Part shown: positions 28,843 through 64,000 of the stretch, piece after piece
Position numbering within the stretch: position 1 is the first letter of the stretch
How the letters are laid out: every line of letters starts with the position of its first letter
From: Alphaproteobacteria bacterium
GTDB taxonomy: Bacteria > Pseudomonadota > Alphaproteobacteria > UBA11136
Direction of reading: 5' to 3'
DNA length: 64,000 bases
Assembly: GCA_016776635.1 (NCBI GenBank)
Contig: JADHSZ010000001.1
Location: 35,064 to 99,063 of the forward strand
Translations under genes and position numbers: made by a program
Notes under the pieces: generated by a model
What the model saw: only the letters and a program-made list of their open reading frames with translations
Told to the model about the DNA's origin: nothing
Database searches by the model: none

Positions 28843-30882
28843 TCATCCTGCCCGAGGTGATTCTCTTCCACCCACGAAAAACTGGGGATCGTGATAAAAA
28901 TCCTTGTAAGCCGAGACCATGCGCTGGAGTGAAAATTCCTCGGTGATTCTTTGCCGACTCCGGCGGCCCAGATCGTGCCGTAGTGCCGGGTCTCGCTGTA
29001 GCTTTTTGATGGCCTCGGCCAAGGCGTTGGAATTCTTTTGCCTAACGATAATCCCGCAATCACCGACGATCCGGCTTGAATCACCCACATTGGTGGCGAT
29101 CACGGGAAGTTCACAGGACATGGCCTCGGCGATGGCGTTGGAAAACCCCTCGCCATAGGCCGAGGCGGAGATGAATACGTCCATGGCATGGAGGATGCGA
29201 AGCGCATCCTGGCGCTCTCCCAGGCAAATCAATCCGGGCTTCTTGGGAAGTTTTTTGGTTCCGCGGCCGGCAACGATACAAACAACCCCATCAAGTTTTT
29301 CCAGTGCGGCAAGAAGGTTGGGGTAATCCTTCATGGGGTCATTGCGGGCCAGGGCGCCGATGACAAACGCATCCCTGTCGATACCGAGCTCGGCGCGGGC
29401 TTCATGGCGCAGGGACAGGGTGGCCTGGTACAGGGAAACGTTGAGGCCATTGTCGATGACGGTAAACAGTTTCGGTTTGTAGCCGATACGGAGATGCCAG
29501 CTTCTTCCTTCCATGGAGTTGGCGACGATGCCGTCGGGAAGAAAAGACAGCCAGGCACATACCCTGATGACCACTCTCAGGGTAAGACCGTACTGGGCGG
29601 TGTCCATGTTCGAGCAGCGGATTCCCCAGTAAAGGCGGGTTTGGCGCCGCCGGCCGGATACCATGAGGGCGATCAGGCTGTAAAGATCGGCATGGTACAT
29701 CCAGCTCTGGATGATGTCGGGTTTCTCGACGCGAATCAGGTCCACGAGACGGAAAAGCCCACGCAGACCAGGCCTGCCGCGCACAAGACCCACCTCTTTC
29801 ACCTGGACCCCGGCCTTGACCAGATTGTCATGACGCGCGCCTCCGGGCAGTAGGCTCACCAGAAGTGGAGACTCGCCGGCGTGGTGGTTGGCGATGGCGA
29901 GATCGGTGAGCATTTTCTCCGCGCCGCCGGTATCGAGACCGGTGATTACATGCATGATCCTCGGCCGCTCTGACAGGGACGTTGATACCGCCTTAGCGGA
30001 GGGGATCAGCGCCATTCTGCGAATGGCATTGTTATAGAAGGCGAGATTCCTGAAGGGCCAGGCCACCACGGCGCGACTCAGGAACCACATGGCCCGGAAA
30101 TATTTTCTTTCATAGAAGGCGGATGCCGACCCCTCCACCAACAGGCTGGAAAGAAATTTCAGGGAATCGACTATGCTGTTTTGCATAATCCAGGCCCGAT
30201 GTTTCCTGAAGAGCCGTCTGGTACTGTCCTGAACCATGTCCAGCGGCGGCCGCGGGGAGAGGTGAATCCGCACCAGGGGTTCGGGGACGACACTAACCTG
30301 ACCGGTTTTCAGGTATCTCAACAGCCAGTCCCAGTCCTCCAGCCGTTCCAGCGTCTCGTCGAAAAGGCCGTATTCGTCGAAGACACGGCGTGCGGCGAAG
30401 AGCGTGGAGCCGGGGCTGAGATCACAGCCCATGAGCAGACGTCTGTAGGTGGCGCAGGGTTGCGGGATGCGGGATTCCTGCCTTCCCGTTTCATCCCAGG
30501 TCAGGATATAGCCCGAGCACAGAAGGCGCGCGTCACTTTTTCCCGAACGCAAGAGGGTGATCTGGTGGTCGAGCTTCCCCGGCAGCCATTCATCATCGGA
30601 ATCCAGAAGCGCGATATACTCTCCTTTAGCGGCCCTAATCCCCGTATTGCGGGCCGCTCCGGCGCCCTGGCGGGTTTCATGGTGCAACAGGGTGATGGGC
30701 ATATCCCGGAAGTGGGAGAGCCCGCCTTTGAGATCGTCGTTGGAGCCGTCATCGACGACGATGATTTCAAGGTTGGGATAGGCTTGAACACGCACGCTCT
30801 CCAGCGCCCGGCCAATCTCGTGAGCCCTGTTGTAGACCGGGATAATGACACTTATCAGGGGGTTCTGTTGGGCTTCAGGCAC
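28843..30882 (-). CDS. Bifunctional glycosyltransferase (N-terminal GT2 domain fused to C-terminal GT4 domain)
   Basis: N-terminus: ISVIIPVYNRAHEIGRALESV..IIVVDDGSND (GT-A DxD). C-terminus: ..IMHVITGLDTGGAEKM.. and the GT4 EX7E region GEGFSNAIAEAMSCELPVIATNVGD. Confidence 0.8.
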   Translation of the reverse strand: MPEAQQNPLISVIIPVYNRAHEIGRALESVRVQAYPNLEIIVVDDGSNDDLKGGLSHFRDMPITLLHHETRQGAGAARNTGIRAAKGEYIALLDSDDEWLPGKLDHQITLLRSGKSDARLLCSGYILTWDETGRQESRIPQPCATYRRLLMGCDLSPGSTLFAARRVFDEYGLFDETLERLEDWDWLLRYLKTGQVSVVPEPLVRIHLSPRPPLDMVQDSTRRLFRKHRAWIMQNSIVDSLKFLSSLLVEGSASAFYERKYFRAMWFLSRAVVAWPFRNLAFYNNAIRRMALIPSAKAVSTSLSERPRIMHVITGLDTGGAEKMLTDLAIANHHAGESPLLVSLLPGGARHDNLVKAGVQVKEVGLVRGRPGLRGLFRLVDLIRVEKPDIIQSWMYHADLYSLIALMVSGRRRQTRLYWGIRCSNMDTAQYGLTLRVVIRVCAWLSFLPDGIVANSMEGRSWHLRIGYKPKLFTVIDNGLNVSLYQATLSLRHEARAELGIDRDAFVIGALARNDPMKDYPNLLAALEKLDGVVCIVAGRGTKKLPKKPGLICLGERQDALRILHAMDVFISASAYGEGFSNAIAEAMSCELPVIATNVGDSSRIVGDCGIIVRQKNSNALAEAIKKLQRDPALRHDLGRRSRQRITEEFSLQRMVSAYKDFYHDPQFFVGGRESPRAG

Positions 30883-30934
30883 CTATTTTTCCCCGGCAAG
30901 ATTTATCAGCAGCGCCACTTTTATCGGCACACTT

Positions 30935-32428
30935 TTAATGCAGTGTCTGTGGGGCGGGGAGAGGCTTGGAGCGGGGTCTGTAGACTTCGGCGGCCAGCAT
31001 CAGTCCCAGCTTGGTCTTTCTCCGAAGTTCGGAAAGGGACGTGAAACTCCGTAGCTCCCTGACAATGCGGCGTGGTTGGAAATAAAGCTGGCGTGTTCCC
31101 AAATTACGCATCTGTACTAGCATCTCTCGGTCCATATGCTCTTCCACAAGATGGGGGATACGATAATCCGGAACTGGATTTTTCGTAAATTCCCGCCAGA
31201 AATCATGAGGAATAACCCCTCGTTCCAGCCCCTGAGTGTAGATTTCCGTGCCGGGATAGGGAATGAGAATGACAAAAACAGGATAGTCAGGATCCAGTTT
31301 CTTCGCAAAATCAATGGTCATTCTGGCATCGGCAACGGTCTCGTCAAGAAACCCAAACATGAAATAGGCCATGACGGTCATGCCTGTTTCCTTGGCAATG
31401 GCGATGCCCGTTTCCACCTGTTCCATGGTCAGGAATTTACCCGATTTCTCAAGGATGCGTGGCGAGCCCGTTTCCACGCCGAAATGCACCCTGTTGCATC
31501 CGGCTTGTTTGAGAAGCCGGTAAAGTTCGGGTGTTACCCGGTTGGCGCGGTCTCGGATGGCCCAGTTGATCTTGATGCCGCGATCAATGATGCCCTGGCA
31601 GATATCCATTGCCCGGGCGATGCCCCAGGTAAAGGTGTCGTCGTAAACCTGGACGTCGGTGATTCCGAGATTGGCGATTTGCTCAAATTCATCCACTACT
31701 TGGGCGGCAGTTCGAGCGTAGACCTTCTGGACGTCCATCTTGCAGAATACGCATTTATAGGGGCACCCCCTGGAGGTAATCATGGTGGTCTCGTAATCGG
31801 CGGGGCTCAGAACGGAACTGTAACGTTGGTAGGGAAGCAGATTACGGTCGGGGGGGGGCACCTTGGTAATGTCATCTATCATTGCCAGGGGGTCCACCGG
31901 CGCAATGACACTGCCCTTCTCTTTGCGCCAGAGACCAGGTTGTTCGGCGATGGGACGGCCATAGACGAGATCTGACACCAGACTAAGCATCACGTCCTCA
32001 CCATCGCCCACTACAAGGAAATCGGCTTCGGAATATGTCAGGGATTCTTCGGGGTAAACGCCGCAATGGGGGCCGCCCAGAATGATGGCGCAATGGGGCA
32101 GCCTTTTTCGCAGCAGCCTCATGGTTTCCCAGGCGGGGTGCCAGAAATCTGTCCAGGCAGTGAAGCCGACAATATCCGGCTTCATGGCCACCAGCCGGTC
32201 CACGGTCTGTTGCGGCGAAAGTTCCTCCAACTGAGCGTCGAGGCACTGGACGTCGCTAAACCCGTTGGCCCGCAGATACGTGGCAAGAATCATGATCCCC
32301 AACGGCGGCTTGTGGCCGATGGCGTGATCATTGTGATAGGTGAACAGGGATTGCACGCACTGGTCGCTGGAAGGCTGGGCCAGGACGATCTTGCTGTTCT
32401 TCACGGGGCTTGTTGCGGTATCGGTCAT
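30935..32428 (-). CDS. Cobalamin(B12)-binding radical SAM protein (class B rSAM) #1
   Basis: N-terminal B12-binding Rossmann-like domain (..LGIMILATYLRANGF..KPDIVGFTAW..). The CX3CX2C motif is SRGCPYKCVFC, followed by a radical SAM TIM barrel. Confidence 0.8.
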   Translation of the reverse strand: MTDTATSPVKNSKIVLAQPSSDQCVQSLFTYHNDHAIGHKPPLGIMILATYLRANGFSDVQCLDAQLEELSPQQTVDRLVAMKPDIVGFTAWTDFWHPAWETMRLLRKRLPHCAIILGGPHCGVYPEESLTYSEADFLVVGDGEDVMLSLVSDLVYGRPIAEQPGLWRKEKGSVIAPVDPLAMIDDITKVPPPDRNLLPYQRYSSVLSPADYETTMITSRGCPYKCVFCKMDVQKVYARTAAQVVDEFEQIANLGITDVQVYDDTFTWGIARAMDICQGIIDRGIKINWAIRDRANRVTPELYRLLKQAGCNRVHFGVETGSPRILEKSGKFLTMEQVETGIAIAKETGMTVMAYFMFGFLDETVADARMTIDFAKKLDPDYPVFVILIPYPGTEIYTQGLERGVIPHDFWREFTKNPVPDYRIPHLVEEHMDREMLVQMRNLGTRQLYFQPRRIVRELRSFTSLSELRRKTKLGLMLAAEVYRPRSKPLPAPQTLH

Positions 32429-32727: not shown

Positions 32728-34209
32728 ATGCCCATGACCACCGCGTTAGACTTCTACAAGACCCTTTATGGCACCATCAGTAACTCTTCCCGGAATGCCT
32801 ATGTGTATTCCGACGAAAAGTACTCCTACGCCGACATGCGCCGCGAGATGATGTGTATCAACTCGGCCCTTTCCGGGAAGTCGAGAAAACGCATTGTGTT
32901 GTTCGCCCGCAAAGGTTTCTCTACCTACAACGCCTTGTTCGCCATCTTGCTGTCAGGGAATACTTGGATTCCCATCAACCCAGACATCCCCGAGGCACGT
33001 AACCTCGACATGATTTGCCTAGCGGAACCGGAGTTGATTCTGGTCGGTGACGAGCTATCTCCCAAGATCGCCGAATACGCCGCCGCCAACGGCTGTGAGG
33101 TGATCAAACTTGAGGACCTGATCTCGACCGGAGAGGAAACAGAATTTACCTATGAGGATTTCGCCGAGGACGATATCGCAATCATCTTCTTTACCTCGGG
33201 CTCCACCGGCCTGCCCAAGGGAGTATTGATGACTCATGGCAACTACATCCCCACCGTCGGTAATATCCTCGATCTCCTTCCCTACCAAAAGGGTGAGGTT
33301 TTTGGCGACTACCACGATTTGGGTTTCGTGTTATCAGTGAGTTATTTATTCACTTGTGTCCTCACAGAGAGCGCCTTCTGCCCGGCTATCGAAGACATCG
33401 AGCGCATGGCGCCCATCACCCATATGATCAAGAACAAGGTTACGGTCCTGGTCACGGTGCCCTCGACGATGGCCCGCATCCGGACCATGAAACGCGATGG
33501 CACCGGCGACCATTCCTTGCGCATCATCTGTCTTGCCGGCGAGCCGTTGCACCTGGATATCCTCGAGTATTGCTTCGACAAGCTAGAAGTGGACGACGTT
33601 TTCGATTTCTACGGCAGCACCGAGGTTGGCTGCTGGATATTCCACCACCCCTGCAGCCGCGAAGACCTCGATAAGTATGGCGACCTGGGGGTAGTTCCCA
33701 TTGGCAAACCCTTGCCTGGGAACGGGGTCAGGTTGTCGGAACAGGACGAGTTGCTGATTTCCGGCCCCCAGATCACCCCGGGCTACCTGAGTGGTGAGAA
33801 CGCCGAAAAGTTCCTCGATATCGACGGTGAGCGCTGGTTTTCTATGGGTGACAAGGTGCTGGACCGGGATGGGGTTTACATCTGCAAGGGGCGCCTCGAC
33901 TCTCAGGTCAAGATTGACGGTTACCGCATTGAACTGATGGATACCGAGGCCCATCTGAGGAGCCTGGATGGGGTCGACCAGGCTGTATGCTTCGTCGCTA
34001 AGGTGGGTGGGCACAACGCTATTGTTGCCGGGCTGGTTGGCCCCCGGGAGATCCGGATCCAAGAGGTGCGGGAGCAGGTGAAAGAGAAGCTTCCCTCTTA
34101 TATGATCCCACGCAAGGTGTTTTTTATCGAAAAAGTGCCGCTGAACAAAAGTGGCAAGATTGATCGCATTGCCGTGCAGGCCGGCTACGAGGAGATGGAG
34201 AAGGAATGA
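32728..34209 (+). CDS. Stand-alone adenylation-domain protein (DltA / NRPS A-domain-like amino acid--carrier protein ligase)
   Basis: Adenylate-forming core motifs FTSGSTGLPKGV, YGSTE, ISGPQITPGYL, FSMGD and GRLDSQVKIDGYRIELMDTE (A8-like), and a C-terminal ..KVPLNKSGKIDR. Confidence 0.75.
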   Translation: MPMTTALDFYKTLYGTISNSSRNAYVYSDEKYSYADMRREMMCINSALSGKSRKRIVLFARKGFSTYNALFAILLSGNTWIPINPDIPEARNLDMICLAEPELILVGDELSPKIAEYAAANGCEVIKLEDLISTGEETEFTYEDFAEDDIAIIFFTSGSTGLPKGVLMTHGNYIPTVGNILDLLPYQKGEVFGDYHDLGFVLSVSYLFTCVLTESAFCPAIEDIERMAPITHMIKNKVTVLVTVPSTMARIRTMKRDGTGDHSLRIICLAGEPLHLDILEYCFDKLEVDDVFDFYGSTEVGCWIFHHPCSREDLDKYGDLGVVPIGKPLPGNGVRLSEQDELLISGPQITPGYLSGENAEKFLDIDGERWFSMGDKVLDRDGVYICKGRLDSQVKIDGYRIELMDTEAHLRSLDGVDQAVCFVAKVGGHNAIVAGLVGPREIRIQEVREQVKEKLPSYMIPRKVFFIEKVPLNKSGKIDRIAVQAGYEEMEKE

Positions 34210-34285
34210 TCTGTCAGGCGGTATTGGAGAATGCTAGTCTGGCCAAGATGTCAATGTGGGGCGAACTCACTTCCGGCGGCGGCGT

Positions 34286-35368
34286 ATGAAAGTCGTATGT
34301 ATTCTTGGCGCCCGCCCCAATTTCATCAAACATTACGCCTTCCAGAAGGCGTGTCGTAGTAAAGGTCTTGAGTGCATCGCCGTTCACACGGGGCAGCATT
34401 CCGACGTTGATATGTCGGATATCTTTTTCCGCCAACTCGGCCTGGATCCACCGGCTTATCTTGACCGGCTGGAGAGGTTGACGCCAGCACGCGATCTCGG
34501 ACGAAAAATGGTATTTATCGAGGACGCTATCAAATGCGAAAGCCCTGCCCTGGTCGTGGTCTATGGGGATGTGGCCTCGACCCGGGCAGGTGCTCTGGCT
34601 GCCTCCGGATTGGGGGTTCCCGTGGCCCATGTGGAGGCGGGAGTGAGGGCCGGCAATATGAGCAACCCCGAGGAACTCAACCGCCGCATCGCAGAGCTGT
34701 GCGCCCACACCCTGTTTCCCAATATCGAATCGGCCCGCAGCAACCTGTTGGCCGAGGGCTTTCCCGAGGATGATATCTTCCTGACGGGCGACATTATGAT
34801 GGATAGTTTACTTGCGGTCCGCAACGCGCATGGCATCGAGCCCAGCAACGGCGATTACGTGCTGGTCACTCTGCACAGGGCGGAGAACACGGACGATCCC
34901 ACCCGGCTCTCGGCCATCTGCGAGACTCTGATGGCGGGGTCGCGGAATATTCGTTTCCCGGTCCACCCGCGTACTCGCGCCGCCTTGGAGTGCACTGATT
35001 TGTGGGGGCGCCTGTTGGCCTGTGGACACATCGATTTGATGCCGCCGCAAGGTTATGTGGAGACCGTCCGACTTATCGCCGGGGCCGAGCGGGTGTTGTC
35101 GGACTCCGGTGGTGTGCGCCGGGAGGCCTATATCTTCGGTAAGCCTGTGGTGTCTCTGATCGAGTTGATCTGGGTGCCCGAGATGATAGAGGCCGGCTGG
35201 GAGTTCGTCGCTGGAGCCGATACCGAAAGGATCCGCTATGGCCTTGAGACTTTCACGCCACCGCCGGGCCGCCCGGATATCTTTGGTGATGGCGGGGCCG
35301 CTCATCGCATGGTCGATATTCTCCTGGAAAGGTATGGCGGCGAAGCGAAAAGGCAGTACGGTTCATGA
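34286..35368 (+). CDS. wecB: UDP-N-acetylglucosamine 2-epimerase (non-hydrolysing), WecB family
   Basis: MKVVCILGARPNFIK.., ..VHTGQH.. and ..VAHVEAGVR.. are hallmark WecB/MnaA motifs. Confidence 0.85.
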   Translation: MKVVCILGARPNFIKHYAFQKACRSKGLECIAVHTGQHSDVDMSDIFFRQLGLDPPAYLDRLERLTPARDLGRKMVFIEDAIKCESPALVVVYGDVASTRAGALAASGLGVPVAHVEAGVRAGNMSNPEELNRRIAELCAHTLFPNIESARSNLLAEGFPEDDIFLTGDIMMDSLLAVRNAHGIEPSNGDYVLVTLHRAENTDDPTRLSAICETLMAGSRNIRFPVHPRTRAALECTDLWGRLLACGHIDLMPPQGYVETVRLIAGAERVLSDSGGVRREAYIFGKPVVSLIELIWVPEMIEAGWEFVAGADTERIRYGLETFTPPPGRPDIFGDGGAAHRMVDILLERYGGEAKRQYGS

Positions 35369-36135
35369 GTCTGGAAATCGGTACAGAAAGTGTCTCCGTG
35401 GTTATTCCCTGCCACAACGAGGCCGAGTCCCTACCCACCCTGTTTGCCCGCGTTTCTGAGATGAGGCGCTCTCTTGATGGTGTCATGCTGGTCCTTGTGG
35501 ATGACGGCTCCAGCGACGGCACGGGGGAGCTTCTGCGGGCGGAGTTCGGGGGCGATCCTGACGTGCGGGTGGTATCCCATGACGTAAGATTGGGATACGG
35601 CGGGGCGCTCAAGGTGGGCCTGGACGCGGCGGACGGTGATATCGTGGTTACCATCGACGCCGACACTAACTACGATATCCGCAATATCAAAAAGCTTCTT
35701 GAGGCCCTCGGCAACGGTGCCGACATGGTCACGGCGTCGCCGTTCATGGATGGCGGGGCCTGGAACTATCCGTTCCGCCGCTTCGTCATGAGCCGAGTCC
35801 TGGTAACCCTCTACCGGATGGCGCTGTGGAACCAGGTTGGGGATATCATGACCTTCACCTGCGGCTTCCGTGCCTATCGCCGCACCATCCTTGCCGCCGT
35901 CAGGCCCGACGCCGACGACTTTTTGGCCAACGCCGAAATTCTGGTTCGTGCCTTGGTCTTGGGGCTGACCGTGGCCCAGGCTCCGGCCACCGTATTTGAC
36001 CGCGAGCACGGCCGTTCCAAGCTCAAGACCGTGCCTATCATCCTGCGCCATCTGGGATTTCTGTGGAAGCTGCTCCTCCGCCGGGTTGAGGCGCGACCGG
36101 TGGAGCATCCCGAAGGACAGAGGAAGGAGGCGTGA
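35365..36135 (+). CDS. GT2 glycosyltransferase, polyprenol-phosphate sugar transferase-like (DPM1/ArnC-like, soluble type)
   Basis: VSVVIPCHNEAESLPTLF..LVDDGSSDGT..TIDADTNYD (DxD), 256 aa. Its start is 4 bp overlapped with wecB. Confidence 0.75.
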   Translation: MSLEIGTESVSVVIPCHNEAESLPTLFARVSEMRRSLDGVMLVLVDDGSSDGTGELLRAEFGGDPDVRVVSHDVRLGYGGALKVGLDAADGDIVVTIDADTNYDIRNIKKLLEALGNGADMVTASPFMDGGAWNYPFRRFVMSRVLVTLYRMALWNQVGDIMTFTCGFRAYRRTILAAVRPDADDFLANAEILVRALVLGLTVAQAPATVFDREHGRSKLKTVPIILRHLGFLWKLLLRRVEARPVEHPEGQRKEA

Positions 36136-38794: not shown

Positions 38795-39010
38795 AAAACC
38801 CTACCTACGACATAAGCCGTCTGGTGCGATCAAAGCGTATTGCCACGGCTGATTTTCTGTGAATTTTATTAGAGGAACCTGTCATGAGTAGGGGATTTAG
38901 CGGAAAATTATTCTGCACAAGCGTGGTAGCCTCAAAATTCTGGTTAAAGAGTTCATGTTGAGCCAGAATCAGCCTACTTTGTGTCAGTGGCGTAAAGCCT
39001 CTTGGCCGCG

Positions 39011-52723: not shown

Positions 52724-52784
52724 CATACCGGCTCAGGATGACGGACGTGTCTTTAATCATCGCCACAATAGTACTCCGGTAGTC

Positions 52785-53675: not shown

Positions 53676-53678
53676 AGG

Positions 53679-56004: not shown

Positions 56005-56757
56005 TTGATAAAAAAGGCGGGTGAAAGGAGCGCAGGACCAATAGTATCTCAGACAAACGTCAGTGTGATCTTGCCGACGTATAACGAACAGGGGAACATT
56101 GTTCCACTTGTTCGCCAGCTCAAGGGCCTGCTCGCTGACACACCAAAAGAAATTATTGTGGTGGACGACGACAGTCCGGATGGCACTGCGCAACAGGTGC
56201 GCGATGCCTTCGCCGAGGACGGAGAGGTCAGGCTGATCGTTCGGTATGAAAACCGCGGGCTTGCCAATTCAATCCGCGAGGGCATTGAAAATGCTTCCGG
56301 CGATGTAATTATCGTCATGGACTCCGACGGGAACCACCGTCCGGAGGACGTTGTCATGCTGCTTCACGTCGCGAGCAATGTCGATATTGTGGTCGGATCG
56401 CGGTTCATATACGGCGGCGGCATGTCAAATCTGTTTCACTATTACTTGAGCTACCTGTTCAATATTTTTATCCGTCTCGTAACCGGTTCCCGACTCGATG
56501 ACAACTTGAGCGGTTTTTTCTCAATTCACAGGGAAAAGCTGTTCGCCTTGGATTTCGACAGAATATTTTGGGGTTACGGTGATTATTTCTTTCGTCTCCT
56601 CCTGCTGTGCCAGAGACATGGGTTCCGGTTTGTCGAGGTGCCGGTGTTTTACGGGGAGCGTAAGCACGACACTTCAAAGACGAGTTTTTTCCTCGTGTTC
56701 GTACGCTACACCAGCGAGGTTCTCAGGCTTATACTGCTTCGTTTGCTGAATAAGTGA
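56005..56757 (+). CDS. GT2 polyprenol-phosphate glycosyltransferase (DPM1-like, soluble type)
   Basis: VSVILPTYNEQGNIVPLV..IIVVDDDSPDGT..VMDSDGNH, 250 aa. Non-ATG (TTG) start inferred. Confidence 0.7.
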   Translation: MIKKAGERSAGPIVSQTNVSVILPTYNEQGNIVPLVRQLKGLLADTPKEIIVVDDDSPDGTAQQVRDAFAEDGEVRLIVRYENRGLANSIREGIENASGDVIIVMDSDGNHRPEDVVMLLHVASNVDIVVGSRFIYGGGMSNLFHYYLSYLFNIFIRLVTGSRLDDNLSGFFSIHREKLFALDFDRIFWGYGDYFFRLLLLCQRHGFRFVEVPVFYGERKHDTSKTSFFLVFVRYTSEVLRLILLRLLNK

Positions 56758-56767
56758 TAAAGACTCG

Positions 56768-58003
56768 ATGCTCTACCATGACATAAAAGGCTGCCGTGTT
56801 TGTGGTGGCACACACCTTACTGAAGTGTTGAATTTGGGCCGACACACTCTGTCCGGGAGGTTTCCCAAACAGGGCGACCCCGACCCATTGCACGCTCCGT
56901 TGGAACTGGTTCACTGCCACGAATGCGGGCTTCTGCAGCTCAGGCATACCGTCGTACAGAGTGAGCTCTATACCGATCACTACGGCTACCGTTCCGGTAT
57001 TAACGAAGCCATGGTCCGTCACCTTACGGGTATAAAGGACCGCGCTGTAGCCATGGCCAAGCCGAAGGCGGGAGACATAGTCCTGGATATCGGCAGTAAC
57101 GATGGCACTATGCTGAAGACTTATGCGACGCCCGGCTTGGTGCGAATAGGGATAGATCCGATCCTTGGCCATTTTCGGGACCACTATCCCGTTGATGCCA
57201 TTACCGTTGAAAATTATTTCTCCGCCACAACGTTTCAGACAGTGGGAAATGGCCGCAAGGCAAAGGTGATCACATCAATAGCCATGTTCTACGATCTTGA
57301 TGCCCCCAATGCCTTCGTTACGGACATCCGGGAGATTCTGCATCCAGAGGGGATCTGGATTTTTGAGTTGAGTTATATGCCGAAAATGCTCGAGCAAAAT
57401 GCATTTGATACTATCTGTCACGAGCACCTGGAATATTACGGCCTTCATCAGGTCGAGTGTCTGATTTCGGCTCACGGACTGCGCATTTTCGACGTCGATT
57501 TTAATGAAACCAATGGGGGCAGTTTCCAGGTTTGCGTCTGTCACGTTGACGGACCATATCCTTCAGAACAGACGAAGATCGACACTGTGTTGAGAAACGA
57601 AGCAGAGCAGGACTTTAACTCGCTTACACCTTATCATGTCTTCAATAAAGGGATTGAGGCGATTCGTGAGCGCCTGGTTGAGGTCATTCGTGACGAGAAG
57701 GCGAAGGGCAAGAAAATCTACGCCTACGGAGCGTCAACCAAGGGTAACACCATTCTCCAGTATTGTGGCCTCGACAACAAAGATATAGTGGCGGCGGCGG
57801 ACCGAAACCCGGAAAAATGGGGCTGCCGGACGCCGGGAACGGGCATTCCAATCATCTCGGAGGAAGAGGCCCGGAATGCGAATCCAGATTATTTTCTGGT
57901 CCTGCCCTGGCATTTCCGTGAGGGTTTTCTGGAGCGGGAAAAGAATTTTATCCAAAAAGGCGGCCACTTTATTTTTCCACTGCCGAATGTGGAGGTTTAT
58001 TGA
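56768..58003 (+). CDS. Sugar C-methyltransferase (zinc-ribbon + class I MTase + C-MT domain) #2, paralogue of 51446..52723
   Basis: CRVCGG..CHECGLLQ zinc ribbon, motif I IVLDIGSNDG, and a C-terminal YGASTKGNTILQYCGL.. colinear with 51446..52723. Confidence 0.7.
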   Translation: MLYHDIKGCRVCGGTHLTEVLNLGRHTLSGRFPKQGDPDPLHAPLELVHCHECGLLQLRHTVVQSELYTDHYGYRSGINEAMVRHLTGIKDRAVAMAKPKAGDIVLDIGSNDGTMLKTYATPGLVRIGIDPILGHFRDHYPVDAITVENYFSATTFQTVGNGRKAKVITSIAMFYDLDAPNAFVTDIREILHPEGIWIFELSYMPKMLEQNAFDTICHEHLEYYGLHQVECLISAHGLRIFDVDFNETNGGSFQVCVCHVDGPYPSEQTKIDTVLRNEAEQDFNSLTPYHVFNKGIEAIRERLVEVIRDEKAKGKKIYAYGASTKGNTILQYCGLDNKDIVAAADRNPEKWGCRTPGTGIPIISEEEARNANPDYFLVLPWHFREGFLEREKNFIQKGGHFIFPLPNVEVY

Positions 58004-58018
58004 AACGTTGGCTAAGAA

Positions 58019-59143
58019 ATGAAATCCGTAAAGGGTAATTCCATTCCCTGGGCGAAGCCGACCCTGTTTGGCGACGAGGAACGCTATCTGCTTGACGCCC
58101 TGAAATCCACCTGGATTTCAGGGGGGCCGTATGTGGAGCGCCTGGAGCGGATCATTCCTGACCACCTCGGTGTACGTCACGGCATCGCCGTCTCTAACGG
58201 AACATCGGCATTGCAGCTTGGATTGCTGGGCCTCGGTATTGGCCCGGGTGATGAGGTGATCGTTCCTGGATATACCTTTGTCGCCGCCATTAACATGGTT
58301 CTGGCCGTGGGTGCCACGCCCGTCTTCGCCGATATCAATCCAGACAGCTGGGATATTGATGTAAAAGAGGTTGAGCGCGCCATCACCAGAAATACCCGCG
58401 CCGTGATCCCCGTTCATCTGTATGGAAATGTGGCTGATATGCCAGCCCTCATGGAATTGGCGCGGGTCCGTGGTCTGGCCGTTATCGAAGACGCTGCGGA
58501 ATCTGCGTTCTCCCGCCTTGGGGGAAAGTTCACCGGCACCTTCGGGGATATGGGTACTCTGAGCTTTCAGGCAACAAAGACCCTCACCACAGGCGAGGGC
58601 GGAATGGTACTTACGGACGATTCCGACCTCTACCACCGCATGTTGACCATCCGCGACCACGGCATGCCTAAAGACAAAAGATACTGGCATGACGTGGTGG
58701 GCTTCAACTTCAGATTGACCAATTTGCAGGCTGCCCTTGGTTGTGCCCAGTTTGAACAACTTGACTCAATTCTGACTGAGCGGCGACGTGTCTATGAACG
58801 ATATGGCTCGGCTCTGGCCCATATACCGGGAATCGAGATGCAGCATTTTTCGGAAGACCTGGAGCCTGTCGTCTGGACGGTTGCCGTCCGGCTGCGGTCC
58901 GATCACGTCACAATCAGTCGGGATGATGTGATGCAGAGTCTGCTTGAAAAGGGAATCGAGACCCGCCCCGGTTTCTATACCCCAAGCGACATGCCGCTTT
59001 ATGACTGTCCGTTGCTGCCGGTATCTCAGCAGGTAAGTGAAAATATTTTCTGTCTGCCGGCCTATCCAACGCTTAAAGATTCCGAGGTCGATCACGTTTG
59101 CGAAATGCTGAAGCAGATTCTTGAGAGCAGCCATGCGGTTTAA
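58019..59143 (+). CDS. DegT/DnrJ/EryC1/StrS-family PLP-dependent sugar aminotransferase #2
   Basis: PLP-lysine in LSFQATKTLTTGEGG and a conserved N-terminus ..WISGGPYVERLE.. Confidence 0.85.
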   Translation: MKSVKGNSIPWAKPTLFGDEERYLLDALKSTWISGGPYVERLERIIPDHLGVRHGIAVSNGTSALQLGLLGLGIGPGDEVIVPGYTFVAAINMVLAVGATPVFADINPDSWDIDVKEVERAITRNTRAVIPVHLYGNVADMPALMELARVRGLAVIEDAAESAFSRLGGKFTGTFGDMGTLSFQATKTLTTGEGGMVLTDDSDLYHRMLTIRDHGMPKDKRYWHDVVGFNFRLTNLQAALGCAQFEQLDSILTERRRVYERYGSALAHIPGIEMQHFSEDLEPVVWTVAVRLRSDHVTISRDDVMQSLLEKGIETRPGFYTPSDMPLYDCPLLPVSQQVSENIFCLPAYPTLKDSEVDHVCEMLKQILESSHAV

Positions 59144-59930
59144 CCAAAATTTTCTTCACCACTATTTGAAGCAGGCCCCCATGGCCTTGGCGATTGAACG
59201 TTCTCTGGAATGCGAGCTTCTTTCCCAACAGAGTTTCGTGCGTCCGATTCTGGACTTGGGCTGTGGCGACGGCCTGTTTGCCAGCATTCTTTTTGCCGAG
59301 AATGTCGATACGGGTATAGATTCCAGTCAAGAAGAAGTAAAACAAGCGCTACGCTGCGCGATATACAATGAGCTGATTACATGCAGTGGAGATAAAATCC
59401 CGAAGGATGATGAATCGTATCATACTGTATTCAGCAACAGCGTCCTTGAGCACATATCGGATCTAGATTCCGTCCTGCGTGAGGTCAACCGGTTACTTGC
59501 TCCGGGTGGGTGCTTCTACGTCACTATTCCAACAGACAGGTTCGAAACTTATTCTGCCGGGGCGCGTTTCTTCCGTGGCTTTGGACTTGGTGGCCTTGCA
59601 AAGCACTACGGCGCTCTCTACAACCGGTTTTGGCGCCATTATAACGTTCATGACAGGGCAGGTTGGCAGAAACGGTTCCAAATGTCGGGATTCAAAGTAG
59701 TCGATGTACACAGCTATGACCCCCCCGCGATCTGCCTGATCAACGATCTTTTAACGCCGCTCGCTTTTCCGTCATTTCTATTTAAAAAAACTCTACACCG
59801 TTGGGTTGCGTCTGCGACTTTGCGACGACTTTATTTGGGCGCGGTCTACAGCTTTGCGCAGTGGGCAACGTGGCGATTCGGCTCAGGCGAAGGGGGCGGT
59901 CTGATTTTATTTCATTTGACCAAGCCATAG
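59121..59930 (+). CDS. Class I SAM-dependent methyltransferase
   Basis: Motif I ILDLGCGDGLFA and post-II LLAPGGCFYV. Its 3' end is the template of the direct repeat at 59901-59995. Confidence 0.75.
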   Translation: MRAAMRFNQNFLHHYLKQAPMALAIERSLECELLSQQSFVRPILDLGCGDGLFASILFAENVDTGIDSSQEEVKQALRCAIYNELITCSGDKIPKDDESYHTVFSNSVLEHISDLDSVLREVNRLLAPGGCFYVTIPTDRFETYSAGARFFRGFGLGGLAKHYGALYNRFWRHYNVHDRAGWQKRFQMSGFKVVDVHSYDPPAICLINDLLTPLAFPSFLFKKTLHRWVASATLRRLYLGAVYSFAQWATWRFGSGEGGGLILFHLTKP

Positions 59931-59995: not shown

Positions 59996-60016
59996 TAAAA
60001 ATTATTTAATATATTT

Positions 60017-61057
60017 ATGAATAATAGTATTAATACAGCAATTAGAGTAATTAGGTCTCTAATATTTAATGAAAAGCCCAATTACGTAATTGCCTTTATC
60101 GATGGCAGGTGCAACATGCACTGCTCATTCTGTTGTCACGCGGCAAAGGTGGTCAGGGCATCGCCTGAAATGTCCGCGGAACAATGGGGTTATATATTTG
60201 AAGGCTGCAAATCCCTTTTACAACTTACTATCACCGGCGGAGAACCATTTGTAAGAAATGATGTGAAGGAAGTAATAGAATCCATAATAAGATCTTCAGG
60301 CGTCCCAAGAGTAAGCATCAGGACGAATGGATATTATAAAGAACGAACTAAAGAAGCTGTCGTCTATCTGCTGGAAGAATTTCCCCAAACGAACTTTACG
60401 CTCTGTATATCGCTGGACGGTCCTGAAGAAATCCATGATCAGGTAAGGAATTTTGAAGGGGGGTATGCAAAAGCTCTTGAAACCATTGATGAATTGGTGG
60501 AATCAAGAGATACGAATAATAATTTTATTCTAAGGCTGGATTCCGTATTAACGGATGATAACAGGGAATATATGGAAGATTTTCTGGTGGAAACGGAATC
60601 ATGGCCGATTGATTACCATGGAATAATTTTGGTCAGGGATGTTCCGTCAAAGATTCAAGAGGGACTAAAGGGTTTATATTCAAAACTTTCAGATCAGCAA
60701 GCGAATCGTGCATCCAAAAAATGGTCAAATGCGATTGATGGTAAGCTCTTTCGCGCCCTCAGAATCGACACACTGGATAAAATTGGAAACGATGAGGCCA
60801 TAACGCCGTGTCACGCTGGCGGCCGGCTTGTGGAAGTTTTCCCCGATGGCGTTGTCAGGGGGTGCGAGATGGAAAAGCTCTGGGGTATTTCTGAAATCGG
60901 AAACGTGAATTCCGATAAAATAAGACTGATTGATGTTATGAAAAGTCGGGAAGCCGAAGATTTCAGAAAGTTTGCGCAAACCTGCACCTGTACATTTGAA
61001 TGCGCCAATGCGGTTAATGCCGCATATAACATATCAAAGTGGAAAAACTTAATATAA
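60017..61057 (+). CDS. Radical SAM protein with a Cys-rich C-terminal region (possible SPASM/twitch-type auxiliary cluster), low-GC
   Basis: CX3CX2C motif in DGRCNMHCSFCCH. The C-terminus has CHAGG..GCEME..CTCTFEC. GC is about 38%. Confidence 0.7.
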   Translation: MNNSINTAIRVIRSLIFNEKPNYVIAFIDGRCNMHCSFCCHAAKVVRASPEMSAEQWGYIFEGCKSLLQLTITGGEPFVRNDVKEVIESIIRSSGVPRVSIRTNGYYKERTKEAVVYLLEEFPQTNFTLCISLDGPEEIHDQVRNFEGGYAKALETIDELVESRDTNNNFILRLDSVLTDDNREYMEDFLVETESWPIDYHGIILVRDVPSKIQEGLKGLYSKLSDQQANRASKKWSNAIDGKLFRALRIDTLDKIGNDEAITPCHAGGRLVEVFPDGVVRGCEMEKLWGISEIGNVNSDKIRLIDVMKSREAEDFRKFAQTCTCTFECANAVNAAYNISKWKNLI

Positions 61058-61069
61058 TGCGTATTAATT

Positions 61070-62086
61070 ATGTCAGTTAATATAAATGGCAAGGCATCGA
61101 TTGTAATTCCGGTATATAACGATAAGTATAATCTGAAAACCTGCCTTGAAGTCATAGAACCTGTTGCGATCAGACATAATTGGGAAGTCATCGTTGTTGA
61201 TGACGCGAGCACTGATGGTTCGACTCAGGGCTGGGATGAAACGCATGTCAGGCTGGTAAAATTAGATAAAAACAAAGGCGTTTCCAATGCGAGGAATATG
61301 GGCGCAGAGCTGTCTAATAATGAAATAATTGTGTTTGTCGACGCAGACATCCTCCCCAACAAAGATTGCTTGGAGAACCTGGTTTCCTTTCTTCTTGAAA
61401 GAAATGACATCCATTCCGTGGGTGCATGGGAGGTTCCCGTTAATTTAAATACGGAAAGCTGGAGTTCAAATTTTGTCTGCCTGAGGTCTTGCTGGGGATT
61501 CGAATGGAAGGAAAATGAAAACGAAAGATTTTTCTCCTGTTTTAAATCCGAATGCAGTGCCATCAGAAAAGAAGTGTTTATGGAAGTCGGAAAATTCGAT
61601 TTAAAATTCAGCGGTGCGGGGATGGAGGAATTTCAACTGGGCCACAGGCTTGAAGAGTCTGGGAAAAAGAATGTCGTTATTAAAAATGCCACTTTTGAGC
61701 ACTATTACAAACCTCTACTGCCCAGATGCAGAAATCTCATCCATAGGACCGCCAGGTGGGTTCCGTTGCTGCTCGGCAGAAGGAAACTTGAATCTCAGGG
61801 GGCTGTTGGTACTTCCGGTGCAGCAGTCTCCGTATTTTTATCAATAGTTTTAGCATCTTCTTTAATATTAAGCCTGATATCTCAAATATTTTTGTACGCA
61901 TCATTGGTGGCTATAATCATACAATTAATTGTCGAAATGAAATTTCTGAAATTCAGCCACAGAATATTCGGTATAAAAATGTTGTTTTTCGCAATCCCCG
62001 CAACTCAATTAATGAATCTATCCATTTTTATCGGTTTTTTACTTGGTGTTCTGAAATTATTGGACCGTGAACAAGCGGCGGCCTGA
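61070..62086 (+). CDS. GT2 glycosyltransferase with C-terminal TM helices, low-GC
   Basis: ASIVIPVYNDKYNLKTCLE..VIVVDDASTDGS..FVDADI (DxD), with C-terminal hydrophobic segments. Confidence 0.75.
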   Translation: MSVNINGKASIVIPVYNDKYNLKTCLEVIEPVAIRHNWEVIVVDDASTDGSTQGWDETHVRLVKLDKNKGVSNARNMGAELSNNEIIVFVDADILPNKDCLENLVSFLLERNDIHSVGAWEVPVNLNTESWSSNFVCLRSCWGFEWKENENERFFSCFKSECSAIRKEVFMEVGKFDLKFSGAGMEEFQLGHRLEESGKKNVVIKNATFEHYYKPLLPRCRNLIHRTARWVPLLLGRRKLESQGAVGTSGAAVSVFLSIVLASSLILSLISQIFLYASLVAIIIQLIVEMKFLKFSHRIFGIKMLFFAIPATQLMNLSIFIGFLLGVLKLLDREQAAA

Positions 62087-62178: not shown

Positions 62179-62182
62179 CAAA

Positions 62183-62207
62183 TCCCCACCTAATCCCCAC
62201 CTAATCA
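62183..62207. repeat. Short tandem repeat (ccccacctaat x2)
   Basis: atccccacctaatccccacctaatc. Confidence 0.6.
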
Positions 62208-62291
62208 GAAACCGTTCTCTGATAAGGGGGGGCGTGGAATCGAGTAGACTCGGTAGGGTCTGTTTCTGAAGACGGGTTCAGAGGTGGTCAA

Positions 62292-63875
62292 ATGAGCACT
62301 AATAAGAGAACGCTGGGGGAAATTACGAGCCGCGATATGACGGTAGCGCTCGTCCGGGGCCCCGTGGCGATGGCTACGACTTTCATTAGCAACCTCGCGA
62401 CCCCGAGCATTGCCTTTGCCTATTTGGCGGGATCCGCGCGCGCCCATGGATATGAGTGCCACATCGTTGATGCCCTTGCCCTCGGGCCTGACTCTTGCTG
62501 GCAGGGCGACAGTTACTCCGGATTCTTTTTTCAGGGCCTTGGTGTCGAGGAAACGATCGACAGAATCCCGCCCGACACGTCGGTGATAGGCTTCTCCATT
62601 AAGTTCTCCGCAGAGTGGCCATTCCAACGCGATTTCATCACGGAAGTCAGGAAGCGCTTCCCTCACGCGCTATTCGTGGCGGGCGGCGAGCACATCACTG
62701 CCCTCACCGAATTCAGTCTTCGTGACTGCCCTGCTCTTGATGTCTGCGTCCGGGGTGAGGGCGAACATACGTTTGTCGAGGTTTTGGAGGCTCATCGCCA
62801 GGGGAAGGATATGGGGGCCACGGTGGGGCATATCGGCTACCGTGCGGCCGATGGTGAGATTCACAGTAACGATTCGTTACCCCGCATCCGGGAGATAGAT
62901 ACCATTCCGTGGCCCCATTGGCCCGAAGGTTACCTGGAAGGCTTCTGGCAATCCGGCCAGGCCTTTGGCATCCAGTCCCCCCGCGATATTCCAATGCTGG
63001 CCACTCGCGGCTGCCCGTACCAATGTACCTTTTGTTCCAGTCCTCAGATGTGGACGACGCGCTACATAATGCGCGAGCCCAACGACGTGGTGGCCGAGAT
63101 CAAGCATTACGTTGAGCGCTTCGATATCACAGCGGTCCAGTTCTACGACCTTACGGCGCTCATGAAAAAGCAATGGACGCTTGAATTTTGCCAAGGGCTT
63201 CTGGACAGCGGCATCAGCTTGAAGTGGTCACTTCCAAGTGGGACACGGAGCGAGGTTCTCGACGAAGAAGTAATCAGAATGATGCAGAAGACCGGGTGCA
63301 ATTTCATTTCCTACGCCCCCGAGAGCGGTGACGAGACCACACTCAAGGCCATTAAGAAAAGGATAGATTTGGACCGGATGAACGAGTCTATCGCGGTGGC
63401 AATACGGCTGGGACTTAAGGTGAGGACGAATCTCGTAATAGGATTTCCCCACGAGACACGACGCCAGATTCTGCGGACGCTCTGCTACGGCCTCTCCCTC
63501 TCATGGCGCGGTGTCGACGATGTACTGCTCTCGCTCTTCGCGCCTTATCCAGGTTCCGAGCTTTTCGACGACCTCGTCGCACGCCAGGTTATCTCGATAG
63601 ACGATGACTATTTTCTGAGCCTTAATTCACGGTGGGGGGTTAACAAACTCCGGATTAATCCTCGAGTGACGCCGTGGGAGCTGGCCGTCTATCGGCTGGG
63701 TGGGATGCTGCTCAATTACATGGTGGGGTACGTACGCTACCCCTCCAGGATATGGCGCACGTTTCGCAATTTGCTGTTTCGTGACGAGTCATCCACCAAC
63801 TTCGAGCACTTTCTTAAAGTCTCATTCCAGCGATGGATTCCAAGCAGGGCACCGACGGCGACATCGAAACGGTAG
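62292..63875 (+). CDS. Cobalamin(B12)-binding radical SAM protein (class B rSAM) #3
   Basis: N-terminal B12-binding domain (..IAFAYLAGSARAHGYECHIVDAL..) and CX3CX2C in ATRGCPYQCTFCSS. Confidence 0.8.
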   Translation: MSTNKRTLGEITSRDMTVALVRGPVAMATTFISNLATPSIAFAYLAGSARAHGYECHIVDALALGPDSCWQGDSYSGFFFQGLGVEETIDRIPPDTSVIGFSIKFSAEWPFQRDFITEVRKRFPHALFVAGGEHITALTEFSLRDCPALDVCVRGEGEHTFVEVLEAHRQGKDMGATVGHIGYRAADGEIHSNDSLPRIREIDTIPWPHWPEGYLEGFWQSGQAFGIQSPRDIPMLATRGCPYQCTFCSSPQMWTTRYIMREPNDVVAEIKHYVERFDITAVQFYDLTALMKKQWTLEFCQGLLDSGISLKWSLPSGTRSEVLDEEVIRMMQKTGCNFISYAPESGDETTLKAIKKRIDLDRMNESIAVAIRLGLKVRTNLVIGFPHETRRQILRTLCYGLSLSWRGVDDVLLSLFAPYPGSELFDDLVARQVISIDDDYFLSLNSRWGVNKLRINPRVTPWELAVYRLGGMLLNYMVGYVRYPSRIWRTFRNLLFRDESSTNFEHFLKVSFQRWIPSRAPTATSKR

Positions 63876-64000
63876 AGGATGCGTAGATCAACGCGTGTTC
63901 AGCATATCCCGCTTACAAAGACCCGTCTTTTTCAAAAACCCCTTCAAATGCCCTTTCATGGTTTCAGCGCATTTTGGCTTTTTGCGCCCAACTTTTGGAA

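Follow-up and report, generated by a model that had tools for sequence, protein, structure and literature searches.

The 64,000-nucleotide stretch analyzed here (the window; positions 35,064 to 99,063 of the forward strand of contig JADHSZ010000001.1, assembly GCA_016776635.1, an uncultured marine alphaproteobacterium of lineage UBA11136) carries, from position 28,843 onwards, a glycan island containing four radical S-adenosylmethionine (SAM) enzymes. Three of these (rSAM1, rSAM2 and rSAM3) have a B12 (cobalamin)-binding-type domain and the fourth (rSAM4) has a C-terminal cysteine cluster. The radical SAM genes belong to two cassettes that recur in other uncultured bacteria and not to one island-specific pathway, and fusions of a WecB-like epimerase to a family 2 glycosyltransferase (GT2), and of a GT2 to a radical SAM protein, would tie these cassettes to glycosyl transfer. 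The region as a whole is probably a strain-variable surface polysaccharide locus of exchangeable modules, in which a polymer exported by an ATP-binding cassette (ABC) transporter would be decorated via polyprenyl-phosphate sugars and GT-C transferases, with radical tailoring.

Open reading frames (ORFs) were assigned to families by Pfam and NCBIfam scans, and paired values below give the score against the curated family cut-off in bits. rSAM1 (30935..32428, minus strand, 497 residues), rSAM2 (43890..45533, minus, 547 residues) and rSAM3 (62292..63875, plus, 527 residues) matched the Pfam B12-binding domain PF02310 with 67.5, 47.6 and 52.3 bits against a cut-off of 32.1, and Radical_SAM with 65-78 bits (78 for rSAM1) against 29.5. 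rSAM4 (60017..61057, plus) matched Radical_SAM (4e-13) and, weakly, SPASM; its C-terminal cluster of Cys265/283/323/325/329 is SPASM/twitch-like. The CX3CX2C [4Fe-4S]/SAM motif was present in all four (CPYKCVFC, CIISCSFC, CPYQCTFC and CNMHCSFC in rSAM1 to rSAM4) and lies at residues 222, 207 and 241 in the three B12-type proteins. The first-pass annotation of the window had placed three B12-binding radical SAM proteins at exactly these positions, with a fourth bearing a Cys-rich tail, and all four calls stand. The nearest solved structure to rSAM1 and rSAM3 was AprD4 (∼90 bits, radical SAM core only); a PDB sequence search with rSAM2 gave no meaningful match. AprD4 is the radical diol dehydratase of apramycin biosynthesis, which deoxygenates an aminoglycoside sugar and is not known to need cobalamin. 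Because this relative is not known to use cobalamin despite its B12-like domain, the domain match is no proof of cofactor use, and cobalamin binding by rSAM1-3 is a domain prediction.

No radical SAM enzyme of the island reached the cut-off of a curated family. Against BchE (TIGR02026, cut-off 481) rSAM1, rSAM2 and rSAM3 scored 155, 82 and 127 bits, and against the AprD4 family (NF033070, cut-off 500) 118, 19 and 103 bits. HpnJ (cut-off 578) was matched with 140 bits by rSAM1 and 137 bits by rSAM3, HpnR (650) with at most 102 bits, and HpnH (225) with 44 bits by rSAM4, which reached no cut-off; HpnP was not among the NCBIfam matches listed. The other best scores were 120/600 for PhpK, 164/575 for the Sden_1168 P-methylase (rSAM3, its best match) and 108/360 for the ladderane radical SAM enzyme, and the best for rSAM2 was 83/360. 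The highest ratio of score to cut-off for any B12-type protein of the island was 0.32. With scores this far below the cut-offs and with remote or no PDB matches, BchE, HpnJ/R, the PhpK/Sden_1168 P-methylases, the ladderane enzyme and AprD4 were all rejected as family assignments. This agrees with the first-pass annotation, which had not been able to match these enzymes to a described pathway; neither a known B12 radical SAM pathway nor a known O-antigen cluster was found to account for the locus, and no bch, shc or hpn gene was present in the 64 kb or the next 10 kb.

The same scores bear on a hopanoid-like role, in which the island would elaborate a membrane-lipid head group in the manner of the hopanoid side chain, through counterparts of HpnH (radical SAM), HpnI (GT2), HpnK (YdjC) and HpnJ (B12 radical SAM ring contraction). 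The enzyme classes match, and a YdjC domain of the island is nearest to HpnK (130/233), but the HpnJ and HpnH scores are far under the equivalog cut-offs and neither the window nor any related locus inspected has a squalene-hopene cyclase or other hpn gene, so this role is very improbable.

A sugar is the most likely substrate of the radical SAM enzymes, and its C-methylation, deoxygenation or rearrangement their most likely chemistry. C-methylation or rearrangement of an (amino)sugar, as proposed in the first-pass annotation, would be one possibility; deoxygenation is as plausible as methylation because the nearest solved relative of rSAM1 and rSAM3 is AprD4, and all three reactions are kept as candidates. 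Relatives of rSAM1 at E ≤ 1e-3 made up 53,054 of 1.84 billion cluster representatives (∼3e-5), from which ∼0.001 rSAM1-like genes would be expected among 28 random genes against the 3 observed, a rough comparison, representatives not being gene frequencies, but one that puts the three genes well beyond chance. The same search returned four proteins of 2,000-2,300 residues (P0228, P0278, P0280 and P0281) with four to six separate matched stretches each, which may represent tandem B12-type radical SAM domains in one polypeptide.

Related loci, numbered L001 and upwards, were compared with the window. The rSAM2 family is rare: a search of 5.8 billion clusters at E ≤ 1e-20 found 53 relatives, every one of them from a metagenome or a metagenome-assembled genome (MAG). 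An ArnD-like gene lies directly downstream of rSAM2 in the window (43003..43893, minus) and in every examined locus whose rSAM2 homolog is 48% or more identical (L004/L005, L006 and L007). Its product is a polysaccharide-deacetylase-family deacylase (Polysacc_deac_1) that matches ArnD, the deformylase of undecaprenyl-phosphate-linked 4-deoxy-4-formamido-arabinose, with 109/382 over its full length. L004, L005 and L006 also hold orthologs of the WecB-like epimerase (52-55% identical), the ArnB-like DegT aminotransferase (42-46%) and the VimE-like protein (38-45%) of the window, together with an AsnB-like gene; L004 further has orthologs of the UbiE-like methyltransferase and of a 201-residue protein. 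In the window, the WecB/WbpI-like non-hydrolysing UDP-N-acetylhexosamine 2-epimerase (34256..35368, plus; Epimerase_2 1e-74) just passes the NCBIfam wecB cut-off (214 against 210), confirming the WecB call of the first-pass annotation, and its gene overlaps by 4 nt that of a short GT2 (35365..36135, plus). In L004, which contains a 60% identical rSAM2 ortholog, WecB-like epimerase and GT2 are fused into one protein of 648 residues (1-1425, minus).

Twenty orthologs of rSAM1 (58-93% identity) were found in metagenome loci from JGI. Flanks of 5 kb or more were available in 13 loci, and there the neighbors included an AsnB-like gene in 10 (usually adjacent), a GT2 with transmembrane (TM) helices in 8, an rSAM4-like gene in 6, a GT2 like that at 61070..62086 in 6 and a member of the rSAM3 family in 5. 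L019 has the uninterrupted order rSAM1, rSAM4, GT2, rSAM3. The 61070..62086 protein (plus strand; Pfam GT2, three C-terminal TM helices) is the partner of rSAM4, and its counterparts accompany rSAM4-like genes in L019, L020, L023, L028/L029 and L034. In L044 a GT2 and a radical SAM protein are fused into 742 residues (386-2614, plus); the GT2 is 31% identical to the 61070..62086 protein and the radical SAM part 24% identical to rSAM4 over its full length, and the fusion gene adjoins two tandem paralogs of the GT-C-like family described below. The rSAM3 family is large and unnamed: a search at E ≤ 1e-20 gave over 4,000 relatives, and of the 120 listed many are ∼55% identical. All three rSAM3-family loci examined (L012-L014) have a GT2 of 315-329 residues, an AsnB-like gene and a UbiE-like methyltransferase gene nearby; a 115-residue EamA protein is encoded in L012 and L013, and a PMT_2 GT-C protein in L013 and L014, the latter from a MAG labeled Rokubacteria. 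In L012 the cassette lies beside genes for a heptosyltransferase and a Kdo transferase.

Three or four B12-type radical SAM genes per locus also occur in L007, L016, L017, L026 and L034. In L041, from an Omnitrophota MAG, four B12-binding radical SAM genes stand in a row (5466-12151, plus), broken only by the gene of a 253-residue GT2, within a Wzx/Wzy-type locus (Wzy_C, Polysacc_synt, Glyco_transf_9 and a DegT-GT4 fusion). A tblastn search with rSAM3 gave no match in 72,556 plasmids.

Because of the WecB-GT2 and GT2-rSAM fusions and the constant pairing of rSAM2 with the ArnD-like gene, part of the tailoring, radical steps included, is suggested to coincide with or follow transfer to the lipid carrier. 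The substrate sugar of the radical SAM enzymes is probably already lipid-linked and probably carries a carboxylate, the latter suggested because of the constant AsnB-like partner. A more specific reading, possible but rather doubtful, is that the cassette of rSAM1, rSAM3, rSAM4 with its GT2, AsnB-like protein and membrane GT2, together with the rSAM2/ArnD-like module, carries out radical carbon-skeleton chemistry on polyprenyl-phosphate-linked sugars, the products being installed on the exported polysaccharide by a new GT-C family. Under that reading, a uronic or amino sugar may undergo iterative C-methylation, deoxygenation or ring rearrangement.

The genes that would serve lipid-linked transfer and export were then assigned as follows. 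Four stand-alone GT2 were found. The first-pass annotation had described four as polyprenyl-phosphate-type; three look clearly of this type, their best matches being polyprenyl-phosphate sugar synthases (ArnC, PgfS, PpgS, AglJ and DPhHxTase), all below cut-off, and the 61070..62086 protein is ambiguous. The short GT2 at 35365..36135 (Pfam GT2; ArnC 78, DPhHxTase 69 and PpgS 52 bits) and the GT2 at 50479..51420 (plus; Pfam GT2; PgfS 158/500, ArnC 111/529 over its full length) are candidate polyprenyl-phosphate sugar synthases, the second with the two C-terminal TM helices typical of such enzymes. The third, at 56005..56757 (plus), is short and AglJ/ArnC/PpgS-like by Pfam GT2 and NCBIfam matches. 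The GT2-GT4 fusion of the first-pass annotation was recovered at 28843..30882 (minus) as a bifunctional glycosyltransferase of 679 residues (Glycos_transf_2, 2e-33, plus Glycos_transf_1/Glyco_transf_4); it is a candidate backbone polymerase, and its gene stays beside rSAM1 in L015 and L040. A GT-C-like polytopic membrane protein of 671 residues (53679..55694, minus) is also present as annotated, and is the weakest call of the set (PMT_2, 19.9 against a threshold of 26.1). It is the first of three paralogs; the other two, of 684 and 531 residues, lie past the window and are 39% and 32% identical to it. The family is tiny, with 18 relatives found; the window protein gave no PDB profile match and no significant match to any known GT-C family. 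Two aspartates, D111 and D137, are invariant in alignment A2 and are candidates for a conserved acidic residue of the first periplasmic loop.

Locus L001, a copy of the same contig, reaches 10 kb beyond the window end. The first-pass annotation had expected the island to run past 64,000 and to supply there a missing dehydratase or nucleotidyltransferase. It does continue for at least 10 kb, but with other contents: the two GT-C-like paralogs, a 732-residue protein with ten TM helices and no family, a 396-residue soluble protein and an ABC-2 permease/ATPase pair of Wzm/Wzt type (L001 19268-20806, ∼7 kb past the window end). The pair matched ABC2_membrane and ABC_tran above the Pfam cut-offs. 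Its best NCBIfam matches were of galactan-export type (Wzt 263/400, Wzm 252/380), below the cut-offs of that mycobacterial equivalog, and KpsM gave only 24. Both components by which an ABC-dependent polysaccharide pathway is recognized, an ABC-2 permease and a Wzm/Wzt-type ATPase, are thus present. The 396-residue protein (L001 16360-17550, minus), encoded between the GT-C paralogs, had a very weak Gal-3-O-sulfotransferase match (E = 0.009) and is possibly a glycan sulfotransferase. A 483-residue ORF after the exporter is 85-88% identical to ORFs on ∼2-kb contigs (L008, L010 and L011), which are probably mis-binned pieces of the same alphaproteobacterial lineage; the labels of their MAGs, 'Kiritimatiellia' and 'bacterium ODZ_NOB7a', indicate oxygen-deficient marine water.

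Lipid A or the lipopolysaccharide (LPS) core as acceptor, with Arn-, Lgm- or Rgt-like envelope remodeling in which the GT-C proteins attach sugars to lipid A phosphates or core sugars, was weighed against these genes. ArnB-, ArnC-, ArnD- and ArnA-formyltransferase-like components are present, and the widespread rSAM3 cassette includes EamA (ArnE/F-like) and PMT_2 GT-C proteins, in L012 next to the heptosyltransferase and Kdo transferase genes. This acceptor is nevertheless unlikely in view of the three GT-C paralogs, the polymerase-like GT2-GT4 protein and Wzm/Wzt, a locus that differs from one close relative to the next in the way of O-antigen and capsule loci, and a window in which no lipid A or core gene was seen.

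Positions 1-28.4 kb encode alphaproteobacterial housekeeping functions (tolB, ruvAB, ftsH, folP, glmM, thiC, purA, an rpoH-like sigma factor and an rluD-like gene), and the left border of the island lies at ∼28.5-28.8 kb. No tRNA gene was found at the border, and no integrase, transposase or tRNA turned up among the scanned ORFs, no search aimed at a phage or mobile-element origin having been made. Exact-sequence matches were also present in several marine metagenome assemblies, where the protein annotations are all generic. In L032, whose rSAM1 is 93% identical, rSAM1 adjoins a GT-C paralog and a block of GT2, C-methyltransferase, DegT aminotransferase and methyltransferase genes; this block is kept at 80-88% identity in L032 and L045, next to GT-C paralogs. 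The Wzm/Wzt pair recurs at 87-94% identity in L045 and in L009, the latter from an 'uncultured Rhodospirillaceae' MAG; in place of the genes around rSAM2 (module A, below), these loci carry NeuB, a KpsS/C-like (Capsule_synth) gene, a TylF methyltransferase and other radical SAM genes. L009 is another species, differs upstream of the shared exporter and adds ∼6 kb (GT2, a carbamoyltransferase and a COX1-like protein). Strain-variable surface-antigen islands shuffle modules between close relatives, and the shuffling seen here is similar.

Two further readings were considered in the light of this variation. An island for protein glycosylation, in which the GT-C-like proteins would be PMT/PglB-like transferases placing exotic sugars onto flagellin, pilin, S-layer or other secreted proteins, draws on the PMT-like matches, the PgfS-like GT2 and the NeuB genes of related loci; since the 64 kb and the next 10 kb hold no flagellin, pilin, Maf, PglL or PglB gene and do hold Wzm/Wzt and GT2-GT4, we give it little credence. 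A secondary-metabolite cluster with an aminoglycoside-, nucleoside- or glycolipid-type product is improbable. The nearest solved relative of rSAM1 and rSAM3 does come from apramycin biosynthesis, the carbohydrate-acting class B radical SAM enzymes characterized so far are, as far as we know and in a 2026 review, antibiotic enzymes (for example of gentamicin and fosfomycin), and TylC3-type C-methyltransferases, DegT enzymes, an adenylase, a carrier protein and a short-chain dehydrogenase/reductase are all encoded. Against this stand the lack of any polyketide synthase, non-ribosomal peptide synthetase, cyclitol synthase or resistance gene, the several polyprenyl-phosphate-type GT2, the three GT-C-like proteins and Wzm/Wzt, and a locus that sits amid housekeeping genes and is swapped like a surface antigen.

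For the decorated surface polysaccharide that we favor, the following scheme is proposed. Leloir glycosyltransferases, the GT2-GT4 fusion among them, would build the polymer in the cytoplasm, and the Wzm/Wzt-type transporter would export it. Tailored sugars would be loaded on polyprenyl phosphate by the ArnC/PgfS/PpgS-like GT2 and then further modified, as family resemblance, fusions and synteny suggest. The lipid-linked sugars would then be moved to the periplasmic face and attached by the GT-C-fold proteins, one in the window and two downstream.

The island comprises 28 tightly packed, non-overlapping ORFs at 28,843-63,875 with 95% coding density, several stop and start codons overlapping; the ORF list and the Pfam and NCBIfam scans bore out the 28-gene glycan biosynthesis and modification block of the first-pass annotation, with its features in place. 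Several informative genes had been absent from that annotation: those for the DltA-like adenylase, the carrier protein, the FabG-like reductase, the second AMP-forming ligase, the VimE-like, ArnD-like and AsnB/WbpS-like proteins and the YdjC-formyltransferase fusion, as well as two 201-residue proteins. By these genes the island would also encode acyl or aminoacyl activation, amidation and deacylation steps.

In module A the WecB-like epimerase would be coupled to the short GT2. The module would further comprise rSAM2, the ArnD-like deacylase, an ArnB-like aminotransferase, a VimE-like deacetylase, a methyltransferase and an amidotransferase of AsnB/WbpS type. The aminotransferase (DegT 1, 36132..37334, plus; DegT 1e-48, pyridoxal phosphate (PLP) lysine in SFSLGK) is ArnB-like in its N-terminal half, with ArnB as nearest solved structure (96 bits). 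The next protein (37319..38794, plus, 491 residues) is a VimE/WbmS-like putative sugar N-deacetylase; it had no Pfam or PDB match, VimE scored 58/440 over the C-terminal part only, and its ortholog in L006 had a faint WbmS-like match. The UbiE-like SAM methyltransferase (41983..42996, plus, 337 residues; Methyltransf_11 6e-21) has an ortholog in L004 (47% identity) that immediately precedes rSAM2. The amidotransferase (45752..47683, plus) is glutamine-dependent (Asn_synthase plus GATase_7; asn_synth_AEB 464/267; WbpS TIGR03108 438/817) and, seen against the template pathways, falls nearest to the WbpS group. Inside the module, four genes would furnish an unusual N-acyl or N-aminoacyl group. 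These encode a DltA-like (amino) acid adenylating enzyme (32728..34209, plus; AMP-binding, amino-acid adenylation domain 206/317, DltA 189/476), a putative small carrier protein of acyl or peptidyl carrier type (39002..39352, plus; phosphopantetheine-type serine motif GGDSPLDS, no family match), a FabG-like short-chain dehydrogenase/reductase (39330..40046, plus; adh_short 1e-43, 3-oxoacyl-ACP reductase 153/298) and a second AMP-forming ligase resembling acyl-CoA/ACP ligases (40046..41386, plus; AMP-binding plus AMP-binding_C, with fatty-acid and MenE-like ligases all below cut-off). Two proteins of 201 residues could be assigned to no family. The first (41397..42002, plus) had no Pfam, NCBIfam or PDB match and has a 43% identical ortholog in L004; the second (47728..48333, minus) is weakly possible as a GNAT-type N-acyltransferase, with a non-significant match to the sugar N-acyltransferase FdhC (E = 0.13) and a single-sequence AlphaFold2 model that was unusable (pLDDT 37).

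Module B consists of the GT2 at 56005..56757 followed by C-methyltransferase 2 (56768..58003, plus), DegT aminotransferase 2 (58019..59143, plus; DegT 3e-114, LegC/PseC-like with LegC family 302/420, PLP lysine in SFQATK) and a SAM methyltransferase of 269 residues (59121..59930, plus; Methyltransf_11 plus Methyltransf_23), and its predicted product is a C-methyl-branched amino sugar. A further module would comprise a YdjC (HpnK-like) deacetylase fused to an ArnA-type formyltransferase domain (48439..50289, plus; YdjC 5e-47, Formyl_trans_N 2e-16, ArnA N-domain 69 bits), the ArnC-like GT2 at 50479..51420, C-methyltransferase 1 (51446..52723, plus) and an RmlD-like NAD(P)-dependent sugar reductase/epimerase (52785..53675, plus). 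The RmlD-like assignment of the first-pass annotation holds at the level of the Pfam family (RmlD_sub_bind 1e-17) and falls far short of the rmlD equivalog (58/224). Both C-methyltransferases, which are 29% identical, carry PF08421 and PF08484 above the cut-offs, the TylC3-type NDP-hexose C-methyltransferase domain set (Zn-binding Methyltransf_13, a SAM domain and Methyltransf_14). The two paralogous sugar C-methyltransferases, two Methyltransf_11 enzymes and two DegT aminotransferases with PLP lysines in place are as first annotated. The last unit is the multi-rSAM cassette of rSAM1, rSAM4 with its GT2, and rSAM3, found elsewhere together with an AsnB-like amidotransferase and membrane-anchored GT2.

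The base composition over the cassette was also recorded. The lowest G+C fraction of the window, 0.41 at 60000-62000 (elsewhere 0.50-0.62), lies over rSAM4 and its partner GT2 and suggests a separate, more recent acquisition of this pair. An Rfam scan found no cobalamin riboswitch in the window; the sole match was a thiamine pyrophosphate riboswitch (18693-18827, minus), which exceeds the gathering score with 65.9 bits and lies immediately upstream of thiC (16772-18616, minus), as expected. Some 5 kb ahead of the glycan island, G+C falls from ∼0.62 to ∼0.55 around 23936-26446 (plus), where an ORF of 674 residues has weak, sub-threshold protein-kinase and class IV lanthionine-synthetase (LanL) matches and is followed by an ORF of 156 residues without family. 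An ORF of 570 residues at 1516-3228 (plus), without family match and antisense to tolB and a neighboring gene, is most likely spurious and due to high G+C content.

Several points weigh against the decorated-polysaccharide scheme. The Arn, Vim and Wbp resemblances are far below curated cut-offs, and are analogies and not orthology. Action of the radical SAM enzymes on a sugar, and on a lipid-linked as opposed to a nucleotide-linked or polymer substrate, is a prediction. The GT-C assignment comes from sub-threshold sequence matches and a model with pLDDT 58 and pTM 0.51. No flippase (EamA/SMR, GtrA, MATE or Wzx) was recognized in the window or the next 10 kb, where small multi-TM ORFs are lacking altogether. 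The 74 kb likewise showed neither WaaL nor Wzy, and no initiating phosphoglycosyltransferase, nucleotidyltransferase or 4,6-dehydratase. Distant rSAM2 relatives in L042 and L043 lie in multi-rSAM clusters without clear glycan genes. As the first-pass annotation had also held, the acceptor cannot be identified from the window.

A variable surface-glycan island with Arn/Gtr-like decoration is already known and is not a new category of system. New are the recurrent cassettes, supported by gene fusions, that radical SAM enzymes of B12 type and SPASM type form within surface-glycan loci, the very rare rSAM2/ArnD-like module and the tiny unnamed GT-C-like family. To our knowledge, B12-domain radical SAM enzymes have been characterized mainly from antibiotic, cofactor, protein-modification and hopanoid pathways. 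Literature searches combining B12 or radical SAM with O-antigen, polysaccharide, nonulosonic acid or ArnT gave nothing relevant, and polysaccharides, LPS and glycans go unmentioned in the 2026 review, which covers B12-dependent radical SAM enzymes. If the more specific reading of radical chemistry on lipid-linked sugars were true, it would be the first B12-type radical SAM chemistry in bacterial surface-glycan assembly, and would imply a class of envelope sugars unseen by structural analysis across several uncultured phyla. How phages and grazers recognize marine bacteria depends mainly on surface polysaccharides, and no part of those genomes varies more than the gene islands that encode them. 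The cassettes, found in several uncultured lineages, offer enzymologists a concrete gene set with lipid-linked sugars as a new probable substrate class, and give glycobiologists reason to expect sugars with unusual carbon skeletons. As the rSAM3 family has thousands of members, one characterized example would annotate many genes.

Compared with known B12-domain radical SAM enzymes, that is the methylases GenK/GenD1, Fom3, TokK, CysS and HpnP/HpnR, the rearrangement or cyclisation enzymes HpnJ, BchE and OxsB, and AprD4, the island proteins share the N-terminal Rossmann B12-binding-type domain and the CX3CX2C core. GenK, GenD1, AprD4 and HpnJ act on amino sugars. The island proteins differ in lying in a cell-surface glycan locus and below every curated cut-off.

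For the tailoring genes, the Arn and Wbp/Vim pathways are the closest templates. The Arn pathway, which adds 4-aminoarabinose to lipid A, is alike in logic, with a DegT enzyme (ArnB-like), a formyltransferase domain (ArnA-like), a GT2 acting on undecaprenyl phosphate (ArnC-like), lipid-linked deacylation (ArnD-like) and a GT-C protein (in an ArnT-like role). The Bordetella Lgm pathway, which adds glucosamine to lipid A, follows the same enzyme logic. The scores are 15-30% of the cut-offs and not those of orthologs (ArnB 98/631, ArnC 78-111/529, ArnD 109/382, ArnA 69/777, no ArnT match). Unlike Arn, the island has no ArnA decarboxylase, ArnE/F or recognizable ArnT, adds an amidotransferase, methyltransferases and radical SAM enzymes, and probably has a polymer and not lipid A as acceptor.

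The Wbp/Vim route of Porphyromonas and Tannerella leads to an amidated, deacetylated, aminoacylated diamino-uronic sugar (PMC7468200). It shares with the island a WbpI/WecB-like epimerase, a DegT enzyme, a WbpS-like amidotransferase, a VimE-like deacetylase and an amino-acid activating function, and by analogy this set suggests an amidated, N-deacetylated and re-acylated amino-uronic sugar. The island differs in that the window lacks WbpA, WbpB, WbpD and VimA, although L006 has WbpB- and WbpD-like genes, that a DltA-like adenylase and a carrier protein stand in the place of VimA, that the VimE match is just the 58/440 bits given above, and that the rSAM2/ArnD-like pair has no counterpart in the route.

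The overall plan resembles that of the three-component systems. In extracytoplasmic glycosylation of ABC-exported O antigens, a polyprenyl-phosphate sugar synthase, a flippase and a GT-C transferase act after polymerisation (PMC11127046). Gtr O-antigen glucosylation, GT136 pentofuranose addition (PMC11127046) and the mycobacterial PpgS/Rv3779 and arabinan GT-C proteins are of this kind. The island departs from them in having no recognized flippase, in GT-C proteins of a tiny unnamed family, and in three to four donor synthases with three GT-C paralogs in one locus; the systems as described have no radical SAM enzymes, whereas the donors of the island are apparently heavily tailored, radical SAM enzymes included. 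Shared with them are putative polyprenyl-phosphate-type GT2 beside GT-C-like proteins, Wzm/Wzt, and decoration modules that vary in close relatives.

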